Shown here piece after piece: positions 45,842 to 63,242 of a DNA stretch of 64,000 nucleotides (positions are counted from its first letter, which is position 1; each line of letters opens with the position of its first letter). This DNA is from Candidatus Eiseniibacteriota bacterium (GTDB lineage Bacteria > Eisenbacteria > RBG-16-71-46 > CAVPCR01), in NCBI GenBank assembly GCA_963823555.1, contig CAWGMA010000001.1, positions 1,664,001 to 1,728,000 of the forward strand. Reading direction: 5' to 3'. A program made the translations under genes and the position numbers. Under the pieces are notes generated by a model, which had not been told where the DNA came from, made no database searches, and saw nothing but the letters and a program-made list of their open reading frames with translations.

Positions 45842-46873
45842 CTACTCGCGATAGCGCTCGGGCATGGTGTAGGTGTAGACGTTCCCGTCGAGGATCAGGA
45901 GCATCACGTCTCCCCGCGGATGCCAGCGCAGGCAGCTCATCTGGGTGCCCGGGACCGCCACCACGATCTTGACGACGTTCTCCGGTTCGGTGTTTGGCTC
46001 GGTGACGAAGATGGCATCGCGTAGCGTACCGTCTCTGAGTCGCGAGCGGTAGGCCACGTAGCGTCCGCTCGGGGACCATGCCGGGTAGTCATCGTCGGTA
46101 CCGTCGGCATTGGAGAGCCCACCGGGCAAGCGGTCCGGCATCGACACCGCGTCGGGGATGCGATCGGGATCGCCGCGCGGGACGACGAAGATGCGCTGCC
46201 CGCGATCGCCATCCATCGCCGCATACGCGATGCGCTGCCCGTCCGGGGAAATCGTGGGATGCCGGACTCCGGTGAGACCGTCGCGCTCGACCTGATCACC
46301 GCTGCCTCCCAGCCCCAACGTGCGAATCGCGTCCCGGCCGATCTCGACATAGACCAGGTTTCCTCCGTCCGGAGAGAACGTCGGCTCGTACCCGGTCACC
46401 CACGCCCGGGGCTCCCCGCCCGGCGTGAGGACATGGATCCAGTTCTCGGTCTCGCCGAAGGCATGTCCATCATAGGCGACCTGGTTCCCCACCGGGGACC
46501 AGTCGAGGTTGGCAATCGTGAATCGTGGCTGGCCGAATACCGGGGTCGTCGGCGGGAAACACCGGTAGTCGAGGCAGCCCTGGGTCACGGCACCGGTCAG
46601 GAGATGGTGCGACACGGCTTCGATGGGTACCCGGAGGGCGATCGTGATGAAAGCGAACCGATCTGGACCCTCCGGAGCCTGGAGCCAGCTCACGGAATCG
46701 GTGAGAAAGTCGTTGTCGCCCTCGGTGATGACGAACCCGGGCTCGGGGCCGAGGTCGGGATCAGGGGTACTGGTGGGAGCGCTGCAACCGGTCAGAATCG
46801 TGACGACCAGCCCAGCGACGATCGCGCCCGGGACTCCCCCGCCCCACCGTCGATCGGCTTGACGCTGGTCCAT
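45842..46873 (-). CDS. TolB-like (PD40/WD40) beta-propeller lipoprotein
   Basis: Lipobox LTGC; repeats WSPVG, FSPDG, ISPDG and PAWSPSG. Confidence 0.8.
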   Translation of the reverse strand: MDQRQADRRWGGGVPGAIVAGLVVTILTGCSAPTSTPDPDLGPEPGFVITEGDNDFLTDSVSWLQAPEGPDRFAFITIALRVPIEAVSHHLLTGAVTQGCLDYRCFPPTTPVFGQPRFTIANLDWSPVGNQVAYDGHAFGETENWIHVLTPGGEPRAWVTGYEPTFSPDGGNLVYVEIGRDAIRTLGLGGSGDQVERDGLTGVRHPTISPDGQRIAYAAMDGDRGQRIFVVPRGDPDRIPDAVSMPDRLPGGLSNADGTDDDYPAWSPSGRYVAYRSRLRDGTLRDAIFVTEPNTEPENVVKIVVAVPGTQMSCLRWHPRGDVMLLILDGNVYTYTMPERYRE

Positions 46874-46925
46874 GATGACAGGCCTCCCCTCCCCGCGAAT
46901 TCCCCGGAGCTTCGCTCGCAGAGGA

Positions 46926-47930
46926 CTACCGGCTGCGATAGGGCTCCGGCATCGGGTAGGCATAGACGTCGCCGTCGATGATCACGAGCACGTACTCCCC
47001 GCTCCTGTGCCACCGCAGTCCGGTCATCTCCCGCCCGGGATCGATGGCCACGATGCGCACGGGATTGTTGAGGGCTCCGAACGCGTTGGTGATGAAGATG
47101 GCATTACGAATCGTGTTCTCGCGAATCTTCGTCCGGTAGGCGATGTATCGCCCTCCCGGGGACCACGCCGGATAGTCGTCGTCCGTACCATCCCCGCCCT
47201 GACCCCCCGGCAGCACGTCGGGATGGGAAACCACATCGGCAAGAAGCGTCGGGTCGCGGCGATCGTGCACGAAGATGCGGCGACCCCGTGTGCCGTCGAT
47301 GGCCGAATAGGCGATGAAATCGCCATCCGGCGACACCACGGGATGAGCGGCACCGGAAAGGGCCTCGCGCAGGGTGGCTCCGCCGCCACTGGAGGGGTTG
47401 AACGACCGGAGCGCGTCCCGCCCGTTCTCGACGTAGATGACGAGGCCGGCATCCGGCGTGAAGCTGGGCTCGAAGCCGGTGAGCCAGCGCCGGGGCTCCC
47501 CCCCCGGCTGCATGGTATAGACCCAGGTCGCCTCTCGGGCCCGCTGACCCTGGAACGCCACGAAGGCGCCGCGCGGCGACCAGCTCACCTCCGATATCGA
47601 GAGACCCGCCTCCTTGAAGATCTCCTGAGTCTGCGGAAAGCAGTCCTCACTGTTGCAGGCCGTCGTGAAATGGGCACTGAAGAGGTAATGGGAGGGGGCG
47701 TTGGTCGGAGCATCACGCGAGACGGCGATGAACGAGAAGCGGCCGAGCCCGCTGGCCGAGTCCTGCCAGCTCACCGAGTTCGTATCCCAGGCGTCGTCGC
47801 CCTCGATGAGGACGAACCCGATGTCGCCGAAGTCGCCGGGGGCGGTGGGGTTGTCGCTCCCCCCGCAGCCGGCCACCATGAGGCCCAGGATCAGAACGAC
47901 CGACCCCCTCCAACCGAACATCCTCGACAT
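46926..47930 (-). CDS. TolB-like (PD40/WD40) beta-propeller lipoprotein, tandem paralog
   Basis: Lipobox VAGC; repeats WSPRG, FTPDA, VSPDG and PAWSPGG. Confidence 0.8.
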   Translation of the reverse strand: MSRMFGWRGSVVLILGLMVAGCGGSDNPTAPGDFGDIGFVLIEGDDAWDTNSVSWQDSASGLGRFSFIAVSRDAPTNAPSHYLFSAHFTTACNSEDCFPQTQEIFKEAGLSISEVSWSPRGAFVAFQGQRAREATWVYTMQPGGEPRRWLTGFEPSFTPDAGLVIYVENGRDALRSFNPSSGGGATLREALSGAAHPVVSPDGDFIAYSAIDGTRGRRIFVHDRRDPTLLADVVSHPDVLPGGQGGDGTDDDYPAWSPGGRYIAYRTKIRENTIRNAIFITNAFGALNNPVRIVAIDPGREMTGLRWHRSGEYVLVIIDGDVYAYPMPEPYRSR

Positions 47931-48141
47931 GCGCGATCTCCCAGAGCTTCTGGCGCTGTAAACGACGTTGCCACCGCAAGCTAGCCGCATCTCCACAGAA
48001 CCGAGGTGCGGGCCGCATCTTCCGGTTTCACTTGAACATACGGAAAGAACCGGGCTTCTGTGTCAGGAGTTCCTCGCTTCCCCGCCGCGGCTCGATGGGG
48101 AGGCTCCCGGCATTCCGGATCTCGCGTGCGGCCGCATCGCC

Positions 48142-51100
48142 TCACATGGCGCGCCGATACTCACCACCCACTTCGTAGAGCGCTTGCGTGATCTGACCCA
48201 GGCTCGCCACACGCACGGTCCGCATCAGCTCGGCGAAGATGTTGCCGCGTTCGGCCGCCACCTGCCGCAGCCGATCGAGGGCGGCTCGCGCCTCCGTCTC
48301 ACGCTCGTGCTGGAAGGAACGCAGGCGGGAGATCTGACCGTCCTTCTCCTCGACCGTGGCCCGGGTCAGAGCGGGCACCGAGAGCTCGCTACGAAGCGCC
48401 GGATCGGGATGGATGAACGTATTGACGCCCACGATGGGGAGCTCTCCGGAGTGCTTGAGCCGTTCGTAGAGCAGCGACTCCTCCTGGATCTTCGAGCGCT
48501 GGTACTGGGTCTCCATCGCCCCGAGGACACCACCCCGCTCGTTCAACCGCTCGAACTCCTTGAGCACGGCTTCCTCGACCAGGTCGGTGAGCTCGGACAT
48601 GATGTAGCTCCCCTGGTTCGGATTCTCGTTCTTCGCCACGCCGAACTCGCGGGCGATGATCATCTGGATCGCCATCGCCCGGCGCACCGATTCCTCGGTC
48701 GGCGTCGTGACCGCCTCGTCGTACGCGTTCGTGTGGAGCGAGTTGCAGCTGTCGTGGTAGGCGATGAGTGCCTGCAGCGTGGTGCGGATGTCGTTGAACT
48801 GCACCTCCTGCGCATGCAGGGAGCGCCCGCTGGTCTGGATGTGGTACTTGAGCTGCTGCGCCCGCGAGCCGGCCCCGTAGCGCTCGTGCATGGCCACCGC
48901 CCAGATCCGGCGCGCCACCCGCCCCATCACCGTGTACTCGGCGTCGAGCCCGTTCGAGAAGAAGAATGAGAGGTTCGGTGCGAAATCGTCGATCTTCATC
49001 CCGCGCGCCAGGAAGTACTCGACGTAGGTGAAGCCGTTGGCCAGGGTGAAGGCGAGCTGCGTGATGGGGTTGGCGCCGGCCTCGGCGATGTGATAGCCGG
49101 AGATGGAGATCGAGTAGTAGTTGCGGACCCCGTTCTCGACGAAGAACTGCTGCACGTCCCCCATCATCTTGAGGGCGAACTCGATCGAGAAGATGCAGGT
49201 GTTCTGCGCCTGGTCTTCCTTGAGGATGTCCGCCTGCACGGTGCCGCGCACGGTACGGAGGGTATGAGCGACGATCCGCCCCCGCTCCTCGGCTGTGGGC
49301 TCGCGCCCGGTCTCGCCCCGGAACCGCTCGACCTGCTGATCGATGGCCGTGTTGAAGTAGAGCGCGAGCATGATCGGCGCCGGGCCGTTGATGGTCATCG
49401 ACACCGATGTGTTGGCATCGAGGAGATCGAAGCCGTCGTAGAGCGCCTTCATGTCGTCGAGGGTCGCGATCGAGACCCCGCTTTCCCCGATCTTGCCGTA
49501 GATGTCGGGGCGCTCGTGCGGGTCCTGCCCGTAGAGGGTCACTGAATCGAAGGCGGTCGAAAGACGCCGCGCCTTGTGGCCGCGACACAGGTAGTGGAAA
49601 CGGCGATTGGTGCGTTCCGGCGGCCCCTCCCCCGCGAACATGCGGATCGGGTCCTCGTCCTGGCGCCGGAACGGAAACACACCGGCGGTGAACGGGAACT
49701 GGCCCGGCAGGTTCTCGAGCATCAGGAAGCGAACGATCTCGCCCTCGTCTCGCGTGTGCGGCAGGGCGACCTTCCGCACCGGGATGCCGGACAGCGTGAT
49801 CGTGCGGAGCGGCGTATGCACCTCGCGGTCGCGTACCCGGTAGACGAACTCGTCCCCCTCGTATTCGGACCGCAGCTCAGGCCACGCCGCGAGCAGCACG
49901 CGCGCGCGATCATCGAGCTCGGCATCGGCCTGGGCCGCGAGCTCGTCGAGGCGCACCGCGGCGCTCTCCTCCCCGCGCGCCCTGAGCTCGGCTGCCGACG
50001 TGAGGAAAGCCTGCCGGCGCCGCGCCACGTCGACCTGCACCTCGGCTCGCGCGCGGTACGCGCGGGCGGTTCCAGCGATCTCGCCCAGATACCGCACCCG
50101 CTCCGGCGGGACGATCGTGTGCTTCCAGTCGGCGTGGAACCGGGGTGCCCACAACGCCCCGGGCTCCAGATCGGCGATCCCACCCTCGCGGAGCCGGGCG
50201 AGGAGAGCGACGTAGAGGGCGTTCACGCCGGGGTCGTGGAAGTGGCTGGCGATCGTGGGAAAGACCGGCAGATCCTCGTCGCCGGGCGGCGTACCGTGGA
50301 GATTGTGCCCGCGCCGGAACTGCTTCCGCACATCACGCAGGGCATCCTCGCTGCCGCGACGCTCGAACTTGTTGATGACGATCATGTCGGCGAGGTCGAT
50401 CATGTCGATCTTCTCGAGCTGGGTCTGCGCCCCGAACTCGGAGGTCATGACGTAGATCGAGAGATCCGAGATGTCGACAACCGCCGCATCGCCCTGGCCG
50501 ATGCCCGAGGTTTCGACCAGGATCAGATCGTAGCCGGCACCGCGCGCCACCTTGATCGCATCGGCCATGGCCGCCGTGAGCTCGGTCCCCGATCCGCGCG
50601 TGGCGAAGCTCCGCATGAAGACCCGCGGTGTGCGCAGCGCGTTCATCCGGATGCGGTCGCCGAGGAGGGCTCCACCGGAGCGCCGCTTGGAAGGATCGAC
50701 CGCGAAGATGGCGACCGTCTTCTCGGGGAAATCGCTGAGGAAGCGGCGCACGAGCTCATCGGTGAGGGAGCTCTTGCCGGCGCCGCCGGTGCCCGTGATG
50801 CCGATCACCGGGACCCGGCGGTCGACCGCGGTCGCGAAGTGCAACCCTTCGAACACGCCATGGCCGTTGCCCCCGCTGGCCCGGCGCGTTCGCGCTTCGC
50901 CCCCGGCCCCGCTGCCGACGAGCACCGGACTTCCCGATTCGACAAGGGTGATGGCCCGCGCCACCAGCGGCGGCGCTTGCCAGGCGATCGTGGCGCCGTC
51001 GAGTGGCGCGCGCTCGAGGGTGGAGAAATCAGCGTTCTCCAGCAGATAGTTGATCATCCCCTGGAGACCCATCTGCCGCCCGTCCTCGGGGCTGAAGATC

Positions 51101-51459
51101 TTCGCCACCCCGTAGGCCTCGAGCTCGCGGATCTCATCGGGGATGATCACCCCACCCCCGCCGCCGAAGACCCGGATGTGAGGGGCGCCCTTGGCCTTGA
51201 GGAGATCGCAGACATACTTGAAGAACTCGAGATGGCCGCCCTGGTAGCTCGTGATGGCGAGGCCCTGGGCGTCCTCCTGGATGGCTGCGTCCACCATCTC
51301 CTCGGCCGAGCGGTTGTGGCCGAGATGGATGACCTCGGCGCCTGAGGCCTGGATGATCCGACGCATGACGTTGATCGCCGCATCGTGGCCATCGAACAGG
51401 GCGGCCGCGGTGACGATCCGGATCTTGTGGTGCGGGCTGTAGGGCTCGACTTCGCTCAT
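48142..51459 (-). CDS. icmF: Fused isobutyryl-CoA mutase (B12-binding, MeaB-like GTPase and mutase domains)
   Basis: [39 protein letters not shown] and [10 protein letters not shown]. Confidence 0.96.
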
Positions 51460-51757: not shown

Positions 51758-51781
51758 TACCGGCGCCCTCTAGATGTGGAC
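51735..51781. promoter_or_regulatory. Tandem NrdR boxes
   Basis: TCCCCAAGATGTGGGG and CCCTCTAGATGTGGAC share an AGATGTGG core, lie 31 bp apart and overlap the nrdJ promoter. Confidence 0.75.
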
Positions 51782-52073
51782 TCCACGGATGTTTGGTGGA
51801 GCCCAGGCAGACCCGAGGACGGATCTGTTTCGAGCCCGTCCTGGGGCCTGCCCGAGGGTGGTGTCGGACAAGGCCCAGGTCTCCCCCTATCGCCCTTCGG
51901 TGCCCCAACCGGGCGGTTGGGTCAACATGCCCTCGCTCCACCTGCCAAGCCGAAGGCCCCCGTCCGCTCCCAGGCACAATCAACCATCGACCTATCGTTT
52001 TCCCAGTAGTTCGGGAGCGATCGGACCCTTCGCACTCGAACCCCCGCCCCCGCGGGTCACGGGAGGTGCCGCA

Positions 52074-55000
52074 GTGAGCATGGACGCCATGCACCCCACC
52101 GACGTTTCCGCCACCCAGTTTCCGACCTCCGTCTCCCCCTCGACGCCCACGCCGCAACCGAGCGCCGCTCCGTCTTCCACTCATTCCACGACGGAAGGGC
52201 CGCGCACGGGCCGCATGATCCGCCGCCGCTTCACGACTCCAGGGGTGGACCCGTTCACCGGGATCACCTTCGAGGAGCGCGACGCTCGCATCCAGAACTC
52301 CGACGGTTCGGCCGTCTTCGAGATGCGGGGAGCCGCGATCCCCGCCGACTGGTCGCAGCTCGCCTCGGACATCCTCGTCTCCAAGTACTTCCGGAAGACC
52401 GGGGTCCCGGGCACGGACTGCGAGAAGAGCGCGCGGCAGGTGGTCACGCGAATCGCCCGCACCATCCGCCAGGCCGGGGAGTCGCTCCACGGCTACTTCG
52501 CGGACGCCGAGGAATCGGAGACTTTCGAGGCCGAGCTCACCTACATGCTGATCCGCCAGATCGGTGCTTTCAACTCGCCGGTCTGGTTCAACTGCGGGCT
52601 CGCGCAGTCCTACGGCATCACCGGCCGCCCGGTGGGGAGCTGGGTCTGGGATCCGGCCGCTCAGGCGACCGTCCCGACCCGGGATGCCTACACCCACCCG
52701 CAGCTCTCGGCATGCTTCATCCAGTCGATCCAGGATGACCTGATGGACATCGCCGGGGCCGTCCAGCGCGAGATGCGGCTCTTCAAGTTCGGCTCCGGCA
52801 CCGGGACCAACTTCTCCACCCTCCGCGCCGAGGGCGAGCGCCTCTCGGGCGGGGGCACGTCGTCGGGGCTCATGAGCTTCCTCGAGATCCTCGACCGCGC
52901 CGCCGGGGCCACCAAGTCGGGCGGCACCACCCGCCGCGCGGCCAAGATGGTGATCCTCGACGCCGACCACCCGGATATCGAGAAGTTCATCAACTGGAAG
53001 GCCCGCGAGGAGGAGAAGGCTTCGATCTTGATCGCCGCCGGCTACGAGTCGGACTTCAACGGCGAGGCCTACAAGACCGTGAGCGGTCAGAACTCGAACA
53101 ACTCGGTGCGCCTCTCCGACGACTTCATGCAGGCCGTGATCGACGACCGGGAGTGGACCACGCACTTTCGCACGACCGGCGAGGAGGCCCGGACCTTCCG
53201 CGCCCGCGACCTGATGCAGCAGATCGCCTACGCGGCCTGGCGCTGCGCCGATCCCGGGCTCCAGTTCGACACCACCATCAACCGCTGGCACACGTGCAAG
53301 GAGAGCGGGCGCATCAACGCCTCCAATCCCTGCTCCGAGTACATGTTCCTCGATGACTCGGCCTGCAACCTGGCCTCGATCAACCTGATGAAGTTCGCGG
53401 GCGAGGACGGCACCTTCGACGTCGAGGGCTACCGCCACGCGGTGAGCGTGTTCACGCTGGCCATGGATATCATCGTCGATCAGGCGAGCTACCCGACGCA
53501 GGCCATCGCCCAGCACAGCCACGACTACCGGCCGCTGGGCCTGGGCTACGCCAACCTGGGCACGCTCCTCATGGTGAACGGCATCCCGTACGACTCGGAC
53601 ACCGGGCGCGCGACGGCGGCGGCCCTGACCGCCATCCTCACCGGGCGGGCCTATGCCACCTCGGCCGAGATCGCGGCCCGCAAGGGCCCCTTCGCCGGGT
53701 ATCCGAAGAACCGGCTCCCCATGCTCGAGGTCATGAACATGCACCGGGACACCGCCTACGCCATCTCGGCCGGCGACTGCCCGTCCTACCTCCTCGCCGC
53801 AGCGCAGGAGGACTGGGATCATGCCCTCCGCCTCGGGGAGCGTCACGGCTACCGGAACGCCCAGGCCACGGTGATCGCCCCGACCGGAACGATCGGGCTC
53901 TTGATGGACTGCGACACGACGGGCATCGAGCCCGATTTCGCGCTCGTCAAGTTCAAGAAGCTCGCGGGCGGGGGCTACTTCAAGATCGTGAACCGCTCGG
54001 TCAACCGGGCCCTCGAGATGCTCGGTTACACGCCGGAGCAGATCCAGGACATCCTCACCTACGTCACGGGCACCATGAGCCTCAACGGCGCTCCGCACGT
54101 CAACCGCGCCGCGCTCCAGCAGCGCGGGCTCGCCGCCGATGACATCGATCGCATCGAGCGGTCGCTGCCCGGGGTGTTCGAGCTGAAGCACGCTTTCCAG
54201 GCCTCCGCCCTGAGCCCGGTCACGCTCGCGCGCCTGGGGATCGCCGAGGCGGATGCCCGCCGGCCCGGATTCGATCTCCTGACCCGGCTCAACTTCTCGG
54301 CCGGCGAGGTGGCCGAGGCCGAGGAGGTGATCTGCGGGCGGATGACCGTCGAAGGGGCCCCGCATCTCAAGGCCGAGCACCTCGCGGTCTTCGACTGCGC
54401 CAATCGCTGCGGCCGGCACGGCCAGCGCTTCATCGATCCCATGGGTCACGTGCGGATGATGGCGGCGGTGCAGCCCTTCGTCTCCGGGGCGATCTCGAAG
54501 ACGATCAACATGCCCGAGGAGACGACCGCCGAGGACGTCTACCGGACCTACATGGAATCCTGGCGGCTGGGCTTGAAGGCGGTGGCCATCTATCGCGATG
54601 GCTGCAAGCGCTCGCAGCCGCTCTCGAGCTCCGGGGAGGGCAAGAAGAGCCGCCTTGCGGCCGCCGAGAGCGAGGGCAAGACCTCGACCACGGCGCCGCT
54701 GGCGGCCGGGGCGGCACCCGGTGCACCCACCCCAGGCAAGGGCAACGGCAATGGCTCCAATGGCGACGGGACCCCGGCGACCGCGGCCGCACCCGCTCCG
54801 GCTGCGGCCGCCGGGCCCGCGCCAGCCCCCGCTCAGGCCCCGACGGCGTCGCGACGCCAGCGCCTCGGCAAGAAGCGCCGCGGGTTCACCCAGGAGGCGC
54901 GTGTCTGCAACAACAAGGTCTACGTGCGGACCGGCGAGTACCCGGATGGCCGTCTCGGCGAGATCTTCATCGACATGCACAAGGAGGGCGCCGCCTTCCG

Positions 55001-55454
55001 CAGCATGATGAACTGCTTCGCCATCTCGGTCTCCCTCGGGCTCCAGCACGGGGTGCCGCTCAGCGAGTACGTGGACGCCTTCGTCTTCACCCGCTTCGAT
55101 CCGCAGGGACCGGTCGAGGGCCATCCCAACATCAAGTTCGCGACCTCGATCGTCGACTACATCTTCCGCGTCCTCGGCATGGAGTACCTGGGCCGGACCG
55201 ACTTCCTGCAGGTGAAGCCGGCCGACATGGACGTGGCGGAGGAGAAGGCCCTCGAAGCCCTGGCCAACGGGGCGCCGGCTGCGGCGGCCGGGGGCGGTGC
55301 GGGGGCCGGGACGGTGAGCCCCTCGGGGCTCGGGCAGCAGATGCGGACCCTCATGGGCGACGCGCCCCTCTGCGATATCTGCGGCAACATCACCGTCCGC
55401 AACGGCACCTGCTACAAGTGCATGAACTGCGGGAACTCGATGGGCTGCTCGTAG
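52074..55454 (+). CDS. nrdJ: Class II (adenosylcobalamin-dependent) ribonucleotide reductase
   Basis: FNSPVWFN, SACFI, GGTTRRAA, ASNPCSEY, IAPTGTI, AISKTIN, YRDG, TSCPD-like C-terminal domain and zinc ribbon. Confidence 0.97.
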   Translation: MSMDAMHPTDVSATQFPTSVSPSTPTPQPSAAPSSTHSTTEGPRTGRMIRRRFTTPGVDPFTGITFEERDARIQNSDGSAVFEMRGAAIPADWSQLASDILVSKYFRKTGVPGTDCEKSARQVVTRIARTIRQAGESLHGYFADAEESETFEAELTYMLIRQIGAFNSPVWFNCGLAQSYGITGRPVGSWVWDPAAQATVPTRDAYTHPQLSACFIQSIQDDLMDIAGAVQREMRLFKFGSGTGTNFSTLRAEGERLSGGGTSSGLMSFLEILDRAAGATKSGGTTRRAAKMVILDADHPDIEKFINWKAREEEKASILIAAGYESDFNGEAYKTVSGQNSNNSVRLSDDFMQAVIDDREWTTHFRTTGEEARTFRARDLMQQIAYAAWRCADPGLQFDTTINRWHTCKESGRINASNPCSEYMFLDDSACNLASINLMKFAGEDGTFDVEGYRHAVSVFTLAMDIIVDQASYPTQAIAQHSHDYRPLGLGYANLGTLLMVNGIPYDSDTGRATAAALTAILTGRAYATSAEIAARKGPFAGYPKNRLPMLEVMNMHRDTAYAISAGDCPSYLLAAAQEDWDHALRLGERHGYRNAQATVIAPTGTIGLLMDCDTTGIEPDFALVKFKKLAGGGYFKIVNRSVNRALEMLGYTPEQIQDILTYVTGTMSLNGAPHVNRAALQQRGLAADDIDRIERSLPGVFELKHAFQASALSPVTLARLGIAEADARRPGFDLLTRLNFSAGEVAEAEEVICGRMTVEGAPHLKAEHLAVFDCANRCGRHGQRFIDPMGHVRMMAAVQPFVSGAISKTINMPEETTAEDVYRTYMESWRLGLKAVAIYRDGCKRSQPLSSSGEGKKSRLAAAESEGKTSTTAPLAAGAAPGAPTPGKGNGNGSNGDGTPATAAAPAPAAAAGPAPAPAQAPTASRRQRLGKKRRGFTQEARVCNNKVYVRTGEYPDGRLGEIFIDMHKEGAAFRSMMNCFAISVSLGLQHGVPLSEYVDAFVFTRFDPQGPVEGHPNIKFATSIVDYIFRVLGMEYLGRTDFLQVKPADMDVAEEKALEALANGAPAAAAGGGAGAGTVSPSGLGQQMRTLMGDAPLCDICGNITVRNGTCYKCMNCGNSMGCS

Positions 55455-55474: not shown

Positions 55475-55508
55475 GGAGGCCCGGAGCGGTGGACCGCTCC
55501 GGGCCTCC
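55475..55508. terminator. Strong hairpin (probable bidirectional terminator) between nrdJ and the convergent regulator
   Basis: ggaggcccggagcggt / accgctccgggcctcc perfect inverted repeat followed by cttgctttc. Confidence 0.75.
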
Positions 55509-55567: not shown

Positions 55568-58024
55568 TCAGTCGATCCCGAGCCGTCGGATCTTCCCGAG
55601 CAAGGTGGTCCGGCTCATGTTGAGGAGCCGCGCCGCACGGGCCTTGTTCCCTGCAGTCTTCTGCAACGCGTCGACGATGAGGCGACGCTCGTGGTCATCG
55701 ATGGCGCTGGCATACCCACTTGCCTGAGCGGCTGCCCCCGACCTCTCCGCCCCAGCAGAACGCGCAATCTGCGAGTCCTCGACTCGCATGGTCTCACGGT
55801 CATGACTCAGGAGGACCATACGATGCACTTCCTGACGCAGTTCCCGCACGTTACCCGGCCAGCTGTAGCTCTTGTAGAGGGACAGGAGATCCGCCGACAC
55901 GTCGGCGCGTTTCCCGTACTGCCGCTGATACTGCTCGAGGTAGTGCAGCACGAGGACCTCGATGTCCTCGATGCGCTCACGAAGCGCGGGAATGCGGACC
56001 CAAAGACCGTTCAAGCGGTGATAGAGATCACTGCGGAAACTGTCGTCGCGCGCTGCCTGCTCCAGGTCCCGGTTCGTGGCTGCCACAACGCGCGCGTCGA
56101 CGCGCCGGGACTTGAGCTCCCCGACCCGCCGCAATTCGCCGTTCTCCAGCACGCGCAGTAGCTTCCCTTGCGCCCCAAGATCCAGATCGCCGATCTCATC
56201 GAGGAAGATGGTACCGCCGTCGGCCTGCTCGAAGAGCCCGGGCTTTTCGGACGTCGCGCCGGTAAACGACCCTTTGACGTGACCGAAAAGCTCCGACTCA
56301 TGCAGTTCTTTGGGCAGCGCCGCGCAGTTGACCGCGATGAAGCGATCCGCCGGGCGGCCGCTCAGCTCCTGAACCGCCCGCGCCACGAGTTCCTTCCCCG
56401 TCCCGGACTCCCCCGTGATGAGGATCGGCAAGCTACTTGGGGCCACGCGGGCCAGTCTCTCGAGCATCTCGTGCATCTCGCGGGAGCGCGTGATGATCGA
56501 GACCGATCCAATCGAGTGCACGCCGCGCTCGATCGCAGGCGTCGCCGTGCGTTGCACGCCGGGATCGGGAGCGTCGGGTTCTGTCAACCGCATGACCTCG
56601 CCAAGCTCTTGGTCCACTCGCTCGATCCACCGCGTCACTCCAAGATCGGCGAAGTGATCCCGCGCTTCCCGCAGGTGCTCACCAGCCGCACCAAGTGTCA
56701 GCGTGCTTGGATCGGAATCGCGGAGGTGGCAGGCGAATTCAACCAGGGTCTTGGCCAACTCGTAGCGATCGCCGAGTTCTCGCATCTCCTCGATCCCGCG
56801 CCGGAATGTCTGCTCCGCGTCTTCGCGGGCCCCGAGCATCGAGTGCGCCATGGCAAGCGGGCGATGGACCACCGCATGCTCATAGCGATCCTCGTTGTGC
56901 CTTGCGACATCCTGGCAACGGCGAGCGGCAGCAAGCGCCTTTTCGTATTCACCTAGACTGTTCCAGGCTTCCGCTTCCCGACGCTTGCCTTCGGTCGTGG
57001 CATCAGTCATGCCGATCTTCTCGCCGCGGGCGATGCACTCGGCATACCGCTCGATAGCTTCGGCTGGCTTGCCGCGCTCATACGCGATCTCGCCGAGGCA
57101 CTCGAGCGCTGCCAACTCTTCGCGGACTAGGCCATTCTCGCGGGCGATACGCAATGCGCGTGATGCGTGGCTGTCTGCCGCCTCAAGATCCCCTCTTCGG
57201 ATCGCGAGAAGACAAGTGATACTCTCGATTCGCGATAAATCGCTACTCAATCCCAGAGAACCTGCCACCGCAGAAGCACTCGTCAGCCGACACTCAGCAT
57301 CGCCCCAATCTCCGAGAAGCACCAAACAGATCGCATCATTGCAGGCAGTAGTTATACGTTGCTTGGGGCCGACAGCGTCCGCCTGAGCGATATCGTTGAA
57401 CAACTCTTTTGCGACTCTCAGCCGACCTGCGGCCATATGCGTCCTAGCAACATCGCCACTGGCACGCACAGAGTTCGAGATGTCCCCCAGGAGCAGCGAC
57501 AGGGAAGCTGCCGTGTTATAGGCCGCAATGGCTCGGTTGAACTGCCTTCTCCTCGCGAAGATATGACCTAGAGCAAAGTGGTAATTGATGGTGCTCCGAG
57601 TGTCCTTTGCTTCGCAGACCTTCGGTGCGGCTAGCGTTAGGATCTCAGCAGCGCGATCGATATCCCCCGCTTCGCGAAGAACGCTCGCGACTACGAGAAA
57701 AGCCCCAATCTGCTGGACTGGAGAAATGGTCTTGAGCGCAGCGTGTTGTAGGACTCCATCAATGAGATCGAGCGCCTCACGCACTGCACCACGCCTTCTG
57801 AGTGATTCAAGCAACCTCGAGGCGTAGTAGAGCCAGTCGGCAGCGTGCAGATCAAGTTCATCAGCGCGACGCAAAGCGTCGCGACACAGTTCGGCTGCGG
57901 AAGACACCTCGTCCGAACGAGCGAACAGTGAGACTAGGGCATCGAGGGTCTCACGAAGGTCTTGGAGGTTCTTGCAGTCGCCGAGCCGCACATGAATCAA
58001 GTCCGCACCGTCATTGAGGTTCAT
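55568..58024 (-). CDS. sigma54-dependent enhancer-binding protein with N-terminal TPR-like sensor and Fis HTH
   Basis: GESGTGKE, ESELFGHVKGSFTGA, IFLDEIGD, FRSDLYHRLN, WPGNVRELR and GNKARAARLL; about 480-aa helical-repeat N-terminus; no REC domain. Confidence 0.92.
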   Translation of the reverse strand: MNLNDGADLIHVRLGDCKNLQDLRETLDALVSLFARSDEVSSAAELCRDALRRADELDLHAADWLYYASRLLESLRRRGAVREALDLIDGVLQHAALKTISPVQQIGAFLVVASVLREAGDIDRAAEILTLAAPKVCEAKDTRSTINYHFALGHIFARRRQFNRAIAAYNTAASLSLLLGDISNSVRASGDVARTHMAAGRLRVAKELFNDIAQADAVGPKQRITTACNDAICLVLLGDWGDAECRLTSASAVAGSLGLSSDLSRIESITCLLAIRRGDLEAADSHASRALRIARENGLVREELAALECLGEIAYERGKPAEAIERYAECIARGEKIGMTDATTEGKRREAEAWNSLGEYEKALAAARRCQDVARHNEDRYEHAVVHRPLAMAHSMLGAREDAEQTFRRGIEEMRELGDRYELAKTLVEFACHLRDSDPSTLTLGAAGEHLREARDHFADLGVTRWIERVDQELGEVMRLTEPDAPDPGVQRTATPAIERGVHSIGSVSIITRSREMHEMLERLARVAPSSLPILITGESGTGKELVARAVQELSGRPADRFIAVNCAALPKELHESELFGHVKGSFTGATSEKPGLFEQADGGTIFLDEIGDLDLGAQGKLLRVLENGELRRVGELKSRRVDARVVAATNRDLEQAARDDSFRSDLYHRLNGLWVRIPALRERIEDIEVLVLHYLEQYQRQYGKRADVSADLLSLYKSYSWPGNVRELRQEVHRMVLLSHDRETMRVEDSQIARSAGAERSGAAAQASGYASAIDDHERRLIVDALQKTAGNKARAARLLNMSRTTLLGKIRRLGID

Positions 58025-58323
58025 AGTGTAGCCCCACCGCATGCGAGACTTATCTTGAGGAGAATCGCCAGCATTCGAGCTGAGGGAATCAGCGAGACGC
58101 TCTTCGATCCTTGCGATTCATCCAGTTCCAACGCGGGCGAAGGCACCGAATCTCCGCGGTTCGGTGAAGAGCCACCCACAACCTGCATATAATCGGGATC
58201 GTCGATTCCATCCGGGATGATCTGGGTAGTCGCCTCGCGGTATGGGAGCGCGATCGAGCTAAATGCAAAGAGGAGCCCCGCACAAAGGAACAGGGCGATG
58301 GAGAAGCGTCTCAGACCCGTCAT
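58021..58323 (-). CDS. Small secreted protein/propeptide (100 aa)
   Basis: GAGGTG RBS; Sec signal (RR, hydrophobic core, S-I-A cleavage); TGA overlaps the ATG of the regulator (ATGA). Confidence 0.7.
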   Translation of the reverse strand: MTGLRRFSIALFLCAGLLFAFSSIALPYREATTQIIPDGIDDPDYMQVVGGSSPNRGDSVPSPALELDESQGSKSVSLIPSARMLAILLKISLACGGATL

Positions 58324-58417
58324 CAGCTCACCTCGAGCGTTTGCCACCTCGGAAACAACCCTCTGGGAGTGGGGACACCCATCCAGGAAGTCGCGCGGGG
58401 GAGGTGTCGTGCGGGGA

Positions 58418-58446
58418 AAACTAGCATATATCTTTACAGTGGTCAA
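58418..58446 (-). promoter_or_regulatory. sigma70 promoter for the peptide-regulator unit
   Basis: TTGACC-17 bp-TAGTTT with TG extended -10, in an AT-rich patch. Confidence 0.6.
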
Positions 58447-61761: not shown

Positions 61762-61814
61762 GAGCTTTGTTCACCTCGAAGACGCCTCTGCCGAGCGGAC
61801 GTGGAGCTACAACC

Positions 61815-63078
61815 CTAGCTGGCCGTACCAGCCTCCACCAGATCCTCCATCTTGACCCCGCGCTGGGTCTCGGCGGGAATGTAGGACTCGAGGTGGGTGA
61901 GCTGACCGGCCTCCTTGATCAGGTTGCGGGCGATCGACCATGCGCTGGACCTGGTTGGTGCCCTCGTAGATCTGGGTGATCTTGGCGTCGCGCATGTACT
62001 TCTCGATCGGGTAGTCCCGCATGAAGCCGTAGCCGCCGAAGATCTGCACGGCGTCGGTGGTGACCTCCATGGCGACGTCGGTGGCGAAGCACTTGGCCAT
62101 GGCGGCCAGCTTGGTGACGTCGCGGGTCGCCGGTCTCCAGCGGCGCCGCGGCGGCGGCGTAGACCAGCTGGCGCGCGGCCTCGATCTTCATCGCCATGTC
62201 GGCCAGCATCTGCTGGATCATCTGGAAGGACGAGATCGGCTGCGCCGAACTGCTGGCGCCGGTTGGCGTAGACCAGGGCGAGGTCGAGCGCGCCCTGGGC
62301 CGCAGGCCCACGCGCCTGCGCGGCGACGCCGGGCCGGGCGCGGTCGAGGGTCATCATGGCGTGCTTGAAGCCGCAGCCCGGGCTTGCCGCCGAGCAGGTT
62401 GCTCCGGCCGGCACGCGGCACGTTCTCGAAGTGCGGTCTCGACCACCGGCACGCAGCGGATGCCCATCTTGTCCTCGACCTTGCCGATCGAGAAGCCGGG
62501 CGTGCCCTTCTCGACGATGAAGGCCGAGATGCGCCGCGACTTGACGCTCGGGATCGGTGACCGCGAAGACGGTGTAGAGGTCGGCGACGCCGCCGTTGGT
62601 GGTCCACTTCTTCTCGCCGTCAGAGGACGTAGTCGTCGCCGTCCTCGCTCGCCCCGGCACGCGCAGGCCGCCGGCGTCGGAGCCGGCGTACTTCTCGGAG
62701 AGGCAGAAGGCGATCAGCTTCTCGCCGCGCGGCGATCTGCGGCAGGTACTTCTGCTTCTGCTCCTCGGTCCCGCCGACGCAGGATGGGGAACGAGCCCAG
62801 GGCGTTGACCGCGAAGAGCACGCCGACGCCACCGCAGGCGCGCGACAGCTCCTCCACGACGAGGCAGAGGTCGAGGACGTCGTGCCGCCCGGCCGCCGCC
62901 GTACTGCCTTCGGGATCCACACCCCGAAGAGCCCGGCCTCGGCCAGCGCTTCCTTGATCTCCCAGGGGTACTCCTGGAGCTCGTCGTACTTCGCGGCCAG
63001 CGGGCGGACGACCTTCTCGGCCACCTCGCGCGCGCGCTCCTGCCACTGGCGAGTTTCGTTGGTCATAAACGCCGACAT
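61815..63078 (-). CDS. Acyl-CoA dehydrogenase (multiple frameshifts as sequenced)
   Basis: Fragments across frames: [53 protein letters not shown] and [34 protein letters not shown]. Confidence 0.9.
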
Positions 63079-63242
63079 GGTTGCCTCTTCTTCCCGCGCC
63101 CTTCCGGCGCCGGCATTTTGAGTTGTCGTCCGAGGGCCGCACGAAATGGGGAAGCTCGCAGTCTAGCACACGACCCGGCAGCTTGGACGGGGCGCGCTCC
63201 CAAGCGTAAGAGGGGATCACGCCACCAGGGCAGGCGTCCTGG

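Follow-up and report, generated by a model that had tools for sequence, protein, structure and literature searches.

A candidate secreted-peptide precursor paired with a TPR-sigma54 activator in Candidatus Eisenbacteria, and its likeness to RRNPP systems

Intracellular peptide signalling through receptors with tetratricopeptide repeats (TPRs) is placed in Gram-positive Bacillota in the available part of PMC12700828, where an outgroup is sought to root the receptor family. The criteria for these RRNPP systems, as given in the available text of PMC10075063, are a propeptide of 10-100 amino acids (aa) that is secreted by Sec, a receptor of 250-500 aa with TPRs, and adjacent genes. We analyzed a 64,000-nt stretch of DNA from Candidatus Eiseniibacteriota (contig CAWGMA010000001.1, positions 1,664,001 to 1,728,000; hereafter the window), in which two minus-strand genes form one operon: P0002, a called gene for a 100-aa candidate precursor (58021..58323), and P0001, which encodes an 818-aa TPR-sigma54 AAA+-Fis activator (55568..58024). 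An earlier sequence-only reading had described the two as a peptide/TPR sensing module with sigma54 output, and its open reading frame (ORF) sizes and coordinates, as well as the ATGA overlap of the precursor stop TGA with the regulator ATG at 58021-58024, all check out. From sequence comparisons we lean towards the view that an exported, processed and re-imported peptide controls a sigma54 activator in a diderm, in an RRNPP-like manner.

The pairing was assessed across the phylum with a profile built from 37 TPR regions, the window pair and its paralogue among them, which was searched against phylum genomes at E<=1e-40 and matched 150 of 151 (a tally that includes G044). Loci were de-duplicated by AAA sequence, 27 being dropped for short upstream DNA and three as partial, and signal peptides were predicted by a hydropathy and charge script. 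A signal-like ORF of 75-140 aa was found upstream of 99 of the 102 homologous activators (36/37 training and 63/65 later-fetched loci), and on inspection two of the three misses do have a precursor. The core motif pattern was present in 32 of 37 training loci and 43 of 65 later ones; the later set was retrieved with the training profile and is rich in one subfamily, kin are not independent, and the pattern took in DPD after the window had been seen, so that the window matches by construction. Signal-like upstream ORFs accompanied 5 of 65 generic metagenome sigma54 activators, 1 of 15 other activators of the host genome (G000), 5 of 53 unrelated TPR proteins and 1 of 5 phylum rows without TPRs (two of them fragments), and the motif occurred in none of these controls. 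The metagenome loci came from a single scan that yielded generic sigma54 activators rather than close orthologues, 80 loci being used as controls. The recurrence upstream of homologues of a secreted small ORF with a short conserved motif, which the sequence-only reading had made the test of its proposal, is thus what we found. Translational coupling, part of the same proposal, fails as a general trait, since the ATGA overlap occurs in 9 of 99 pairs (the window and its G001 orthologue included) and the usual gap is about 40 nt.

Precursors of the family measure 83-132 aa and activators about 740-1120 aa, and for 52 of 99 precursors the 260 nt ahead of the gene contain a sigma70-like pattern, compared with 1.5 in shuffles. 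In the gap, tail, matrix, repeat and promoter counts, row L008 is represented by the ORF of a neighbouring pair; it was excluded from the core/TPR correlation and the ladder-residue comparison. Six members (L005, L007, L010, L011, L012 and L014) have an AAA domain that lacks the GAFTGA loop and yet retain a GDPTxDD precursor, the output of this subfamily probably being sigma54-independent, and a 543-aa TPR-HTH (helix-turn-helix) protein (L195, G109:C6) has lost the AAA domain and still has a precursor upstream. The precursor is therefore tied to the TPR domain and not to the ATPase. The host genome contains a second pair (L050, C1:167733-171285), whose precursor holds two GDPDE copies and whose activator is of TPR-GAF-AAA-Fis type; downstream of it lie a predicted lipoprotein gene and a DUF4384-like gene. 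A scan of 582 signal-like short ORFs in G000 for orphan precursors returned eight motif matches, of which only the two linked to TPR activators are family-like in our judgement.

Records of the long TPR-GAF-AAA-Fis type, where named, are titled Ca. Eisenbacteria; a family TPR is also present on one 1.6-kb contig whose label is Bryobacterales, and for several matches the label says no more than 'uncultured bacterium'. No relative emerged when viral sequences were scanned with the long-type alignment. An atlas search returned look-alikes of the precursor in unnamed 109-112-aa Eiseniibacteriota clusters at 0.86-0.88, which we treat as a lead only, and generic clusters for the TPR part, while a representative-protein search was dominated by generic TPR proteins. 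Each of the genomes G008, G022, G069 and G149 also encodes long TPR proteins (900-1600 aa) of other kinds by the dozen; those inspected (L174, L220, L221) have no AAA domain and no precursor. Four pairs (L314, L315, L316, L304) stand just before a tRNA-Thr/Tyr/Gly/Thr-tuf cluster; for three of these pairs the intervening gap contains a sigma54-like promoter.

Family precursors share an acidic core, G.PD being present in 65 of 99; an iterated matrix gives G in 87, P in 81 and D in 85 of the 99 at the core columns, and leave-one-out matrix scores reach p<=0.05 for 74. The core behaves as a linear motif, because its distance to the precursor C-terminus floats between 22 and 82 residues, and in several subfamilies it starts exactly at the predicted signal-peptidase site. 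Two GDPD copies occur in 5 of 34 GDPD precursors against 0.155 in shuffles, and one precursor (L183, G069:C62) carries four ALGEEFPE copies with hydrophobic spacers between them and differing synonymous codons, the last copy at the C-terminus. RRNPP propeptides can also hold multiple copies of the mature peptide (PMC9765709, available part). At L031 (G003:C1:2838992-2848927) and L008/L218, pairs whose cores read G[ILVT]PDQ follow one another in tandem, and RR(I/V)A is conserved about ten residues past the core as a possible processing site. Asp-Pro self-cleavage was rejected as a general means of processing, the SPDE, G[ILVT]PDQ, GDTD and GDGD cores being without that bond in place. C-terminal sorting signals of the PEP-CTERM type combine a motif, a transmembrane helix and a basic cluster on a passenger protein. 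A check for them gave no NCBIfam match for six precursors; in some long-type precursors GDPD stands immediately before the helix, though these lack a passenger domain, and most tails are not transmembrane-like.

Co-variation of the small ORF with the TPR domain, anticipated in the sequence-only reading, is borne out for the N-terminal half of the TPR region. At the DNA level, five G149 paralogues share 92-96% identity through the signal peptide up to the GDTDG codons, fall to 39-49% identity over the next kilobase, to about TPR residue 300, and return mostly to 76-96% beyond it, some of these activators being frameshifted further downstream. The break in identity falls at the same place in the G003 paralogues and in the window clade. 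In the window, G+C content at third codon positions is 0.54-0.62 over the variable block, 0.71-0.84 after it and 0.87-0.92 in neighbouring genes. Judged by these alignments, the residues past the core and TPR residues 1-300 vary together as one cassette in the paralogue series. Six Arg/Asn/Lys positions (158, 190, 191, 197, 229 and 236 in window numbering), which from their place in the repeats would line the TPR groove, change with core type, reading mostly RNNKNK with GDPD cores, RNNRNK with SPDE, RNLLNK with GDPT and RGDMNL in the window. Canonical family TPRs present a ladder of basic residues and Asn that would suit an acidic ligand, in which N229 is nearly invariant (0.91).

P0002 itself matches no Pfam or NCBIfam family. 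Its basic and hydrophobic N-terminus is signal-like (hydropathy score KD19 2.28), with a predicted Sec signal peptide at aa 1-25 (58249..58323) and predicted cleavage after S-I-A; a lipoprotein was rejected, as the ORF has no lipobox. The conserved acidic core at aa 34-54 (58162..58224), centred on D41-D42-P43-D44-Y45, aligns with the GD-PD columns of the family, its IDDPDY being a variant of the G-x-P-D motif. Compared with the same-genus G001 orthologue, whose activator is frameshifted in its assembly, codons 34-54 comprise 3 identical, 14 synonymous and 4 non-synonymous codons; 17 of 21 core residues are retained, and the sequence past the core diverges. This 21-codon core is under protein-level selection, and P0002 is a real gene because the codon differences in the core are mostly synonymous and the 100-aa product is called as a gene. 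We regard the core as the candidate mature signal. The core of the G002 orthologue is more distant (LDGDEDM). A hydrophobic/basic C-terminal helix at aa 76-94 (58042..58098), predicted to be a membrane-associated tail from its membrane-spanning-like hydropathy (KD19 1.66) and the composition of family tails, completes the precursor and had gone unmentioned in the sequence-only reading; tails are hydrophobic and basic throughout the family generally and transmembrane-like (KD19 1.6) in 9 of 99. Of 206 phylum genomes, 3 were found to contain the window subtype, each of them a member of family f1, and the window pair is a divergent specificity type confined to that one family.

P0001 contains no signal or transmembrane segment (maximum KD19 1.31) and reaches the cut-off of no named NCBIfam model. 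The sequence-only reading had assigned to it a TPR-like region, a sigma54 AAA+ domain with a GSFTGA loop and a Fis HTH, without a receiver domain or an adjacent kinase, and Pfam and AlphaFold agree. Pfam gave TPR_12/TPR_MalT/SNAP matches between about residues 110 and 430, Sigma54_activat at 510-674, the lid at 682-749 and HTH_8 at 776-814, and no receiver domain; no kinase was found among the genes adjoining the pair. The AAA+ domain (aa 510-674, 56003..56497) has a complete motif set, sensor II included, with Walker A at 538, GSFTGA at 585 (56272-56255), Walker B at 606 and the R-finger at 666, and the Fis-type HTH (aa 776-814) lies at 55583..55699. In the available part of PMC4641369, GSFTGA is listed as an activity-compatible variant of the GAFTGA loop. 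An AlphaFold model of residues 1-478 is an all-helical solenoid of about 11-12 helix pairs (pLDDT 94.2), divided into a variable half of low third-position G+C (0.54-0.60; aa 1-300, 57125..58024), the predicted specificity region, and a conserved half (aa 301-478, 56591..57124; R301, D341, E345, R348/349, R388) with a predicted role in coupling to the ATPase.

Structural comparison of this TPR model gave Apc5 (Z 28.3), MalT domain III (Z 27.1, root-mean-square deviation (rmsd) 4.0, 356 residues aligned; the best bacterial match), APPBP2 (26.9), LGN (25.6, rmsd 6.6, 315 aligned), Rap with peptide (24.7, rmsd 5.0, 338 aligned), NprR-NprX (24.3, rmsd 6.1, 339 aligned), AimR (20.9) and PlcR (19.3). 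APC5 and LGN/Pins took the top Foldseek ranks, and by sequence the family profile had LGN/Pins as its best natural matches and RapF as a weak one. As modelled, the TPR fold fits a peptide binder without proving one.

The host genome encodes Omp85 proteins and LpxC, by which, together with the Ca. Eisenbacteria records, the host is a diderm outside Bacillota; the claim of a non-Firmicute lineage is upheld. G000 also contains an Opp/Dpp-type ABC operon (C1:524889-530570) and one rpoN candidate (C1:940627-942270), an ORF with an RpoN-box pattern, which we take to identify sigma54. In 14 of 79 pairs a same-strand TGGCAC-N6-TGC site, a sigma54-type (-24/-12) promoter pattern, follows at a distance of 137-341 nt, against 0.16 in shuffles, 0 on the opposite strand and 3 of 58 generic activators. 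What comes after these downstream sites is a predicted exported protein or, for 11 of the 27 long-type loci (L042, L045, L164, L167, L168, L169, L185, L186, L188, L199, L203), an invariant GGAGG(G)nACCTCC hairpin about 230-370 nt past the activator stop. Four of these loci share a second element, and a degenerate copy of the promoter-hairpin arrangement lies near G000:C1:171470-171520. The hairpin has no Rfam match, Rfam having returned only tRNAs in the six loci scanned, and the arrangement is a candidate sigma54-dependent non-coding RNA.

Under the peptide-signalling reading, the 100-aa product is predicted to be exported by Sec, and the C-terminal helix would keep it on the inner membrane, pending release of the core by a protease of the periplasm. 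Trimming would leave a short acidic peptide that includes D41-D42-P43-D44-Y45 and its surroundings, which an Opp/Dpp-type ABC importer could return to the cytoplasm. There it may bind TPR residues 1-300 and close the superhelix, and a relay via the conserved half 301-478 would free the AAA+ domain for sigma54 promoters; activation rather than inhibition is a guess. The peptide might either cross the outer membrane as a cell-to-cell signal or cycle only through the periplasm as an envelope or protease sensor. Of the module first proposed, the pairing, the motif, the co-variation of the N-terminal TPR half and the non-Firmicute host have stood, whereas binding, processing, import and sign remain predictions.

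Several observations weigh against this reading. Against the family matrix the window core scores p about 0.15, no better than shuffles, the matrix being anchored in the wrong place, and the window TPR retains only 2 of 6 ladder residues, so that its groove is divergent. The fold does not specify a peptide ligand, because the best bacterial match is domain III of the sugar-binding MalT. The cassette pattern is confined to three lineages, and linkage by itself makes genes co-vary whether or not their products bind. Across the family as a whole, variation in the N-terminal half of the TPR region does not exceed that in the C-terminal half (0.88 vs 0.79, respectively, among near-identical activators, the N-terminal half being well conserved in fixed-core subfamilies), and partial correlations of core similarity with N-terminal TPR, C-terminal TPR and AAA (0.22, 0.13 and 0.07) are weak and non-independent. 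One family activator (L209, G001:C5) has no upstream precursor and is possibly an orphan receptor. No sigma54 promoter was found beside the window pair, whose targets would then lie elsewhere in the genome. Finally, a signal that diffuses freely is hard to square with the hydrophobic tail and the outer membrane.

Among other explanations, the one that survives best, though we rate it unlikely, is that the pair monitors export: the core would bind the TPR domain only while the precursor is cytoplasmic, Sec export would remove the ligand, and the activator would report secretion or envelope status. Such a gauge accounts for core selection, co-variation and co-transcription without a protease or an importer, it suits a diderm host, and many sigma54-like promoters of G000 precede predicted exported proteins. 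Repeated cores and rapid paired diversification of specificity are nevertheless hard to explain for an internal gauge, and a core placed at the predicted signal-peptidase site in several subfamilies suggests that the cut makes the ligand. The divergence of the tail between the window and G001, where the core is conserved, makes it improbable that the C-terminal helix is the working part, either as a membrane tether or as a TPR ligand freed by an intramembrane protease, with the core a mere protease or metal site. The helix is general in the family, falls inside the variable cassette and is membrane-spanning-like in the window, but few tails reach KD19 1.6, L183 ends on a core copy and has no tail, and the canonical ladder suits an acidic ligand. 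We likewise give little credence to mere co-transcription, in which the small protein would be a mini-protein that is secreted or binds calcium and the TPR domain would sense a small molecule or another protein, as in MalT. MalT, which binds a sugar and has STAND/LuxR domains, does rank first among bacterial matches in fold, certain cores look like DxDxD metal loops and the orphan L209 exists; the pairing is, however, near-obligate, the precursor is retained when the output domain changes, and the cassette boundary falls at the motif itself. A secretion-coupled arrest or leader peptide controlling activator translation in cis, to which the signal peptide, first operon position and ATGA overlap of the window and G001 pairs might point, is very improbable, given that SecM and VemP, which are secretion-monitoring arrest peptides, are coupled to the next gene and carry a motif whose position close to the stop is fixed whereas here it lies 22-82 residues away, that the overlap is confined to 9 of 99 pairs, and that control in cis gives no reason for TPR co-variation.

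The operon is preceded by a sigma70-type promoter (58418..58446, minus strand) with -35 TTGACC at 58446-58441, a 17-nt spacer and an extended -10 TGn-TAGTTT at 58426-58418. Its -35 and TGn-TA are conserved in both f1 orthologues, G001 and G002, so the position first proposed for it holds, although a consensus promoter scanner found none in the window, TTGACC-17-TAGTTT failing with a -10 of 3/6 matches. The 5' leader (58335..58417) consists of blocks common to the three f1 orthologues, and the ribosome-binding site GAGGTG (58329..58334) is retained in G001 and G002. A 15-bp hairpin (55475..55508, no strand assigned) in the space that separates the regulator from the convergent ribonucleotide reductase gene is a likely terminator. 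The pair is flanked by housekeeping genes, for a 5'-3' exonuclease, a class II ribonucleotide reductase, a low-molecular-weight phosphatase and a PurF-like protein. These differ from the neighbours in G001 and G002, and a conserved neighbouring target gene was rejected, since no neighbours are shared with either. The reductase (51774-55454, plus strand) is B12-dependent and divergent to an IcmF-like fused mutase/MeaB gene (48142-51459, minus strand). Elsewhere in the window, two similar tandem genes (45842-47996, minus strand) encode predicted lipoproteins with beta-propeller-like repeats, and acyl-CoA dehydrogenase-like sequence spread across several frames (61800-63100, minus strand) resembles frameshifts or assembly errors.

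A TPR-sigma54/peptide pair was not found in the literature among the top-ranked titles and abstracts listed, largely those of open-access papers. If the reading is true, a diderm, sigma54-wired version extends peptide communication across the Gram divide and adds a new input class for enhancer-binding proteins. With 2-5 pairs per genome, and up to 10, the family offers many natural peptide/receptor pairs with short, synthesisable cores that could be tested in E. coli without culturing the host. More tentatively, and with somewhat less than even confidence, the family comparisons may describe phylum-wide diderm peptide signalling, with membrane-held precursors, re-entering acidic peptides that switch the activators, specificity types generated by exchange of the cassette from the peptide core to TPR residue 300, and one subfamily driving an undescribed sigma54-dependent RNA.

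The locus can be set beside several described systems. NtrC-type two-component regulators have a receiver and a cognate kinase, neither of which accompanies the window protein. With one-component sigma54 activators of the NorR, NifA, PspF and RtcR type it shares the full AAA+ motif set and the Fis HTH; it differs from them in its sensor, a 480-aa TPR solenoid with a dedicated upstream precursor. MalT domain III and LGN/Pins are close structural neighbours of the window TPR, LGN being eukaryotic and a binder of protein segments. In the agr specificity groups of Staphylococcus, conserved flanks enclose a hypervariable block that takes in the signal gene together with the 5' portion of the gene for the receptor (PMC3673130, available part). 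The family cassette similarly extends from the signal core to the N-terminal part of the receptor between conserved flanks, but agr signalling depends on a cyclic peptide and on a kinase in the membrane, and no homology is claimed. The closest likeness is to the RRNPPA systems (Rap-Phr, NprR-NprX, PlcR-PapR, AimR-AimP), which also place a small Sec-type precursor adjacent to a cytoplasmic TPR protein of similar superhelix (Z 19-25). Multi-copy precursors occur in both (for RRNPP, PMC9765709, in the part available), and N229 of the family is comparable to Rap Asn225, which binds the peptide backbone (PMC3601965, available part). In RRNPPA systems the mature peptide returns to the cell and binds in the TPR groove, a step that the peptide-signalling reading would predict for the window pair. 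The window precursor stands at the 100-aa limit for a propeptide, many relatives being longer; its export is predicted from charge and hydropathy; its receptor bears TPRs; and the two genes overlap, adjacency holding in 99 of 102 family members. The receptor, at 818 aa, exceeds the 250-500 aa range, of which its TPR part alone would occupy 478 aa. According to the accessible portions of PMC9765709 and PMC12700828, RRNPPA receptors have an N-terminal HTH or three-helix bundle and 5 or 9 TPRs, while the window protein ends in a C-terminal AAA+/Fis HTH output; RRNPPA hosts are Bacillota or their mobile elements, while this family belongs to the diderm Ca. Eisenbacteria. The family precursor, of 83-132 aa, differs in its internal acidic core and hydrophobic tail, and its hydrophobic/basic C-terminal helix is not described for RRNPP propeptides in the available parts of the papers cited. 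The pair is best read as working like an RRNPP system without being a member of that group, from which it is set apart by length, architecture and host.

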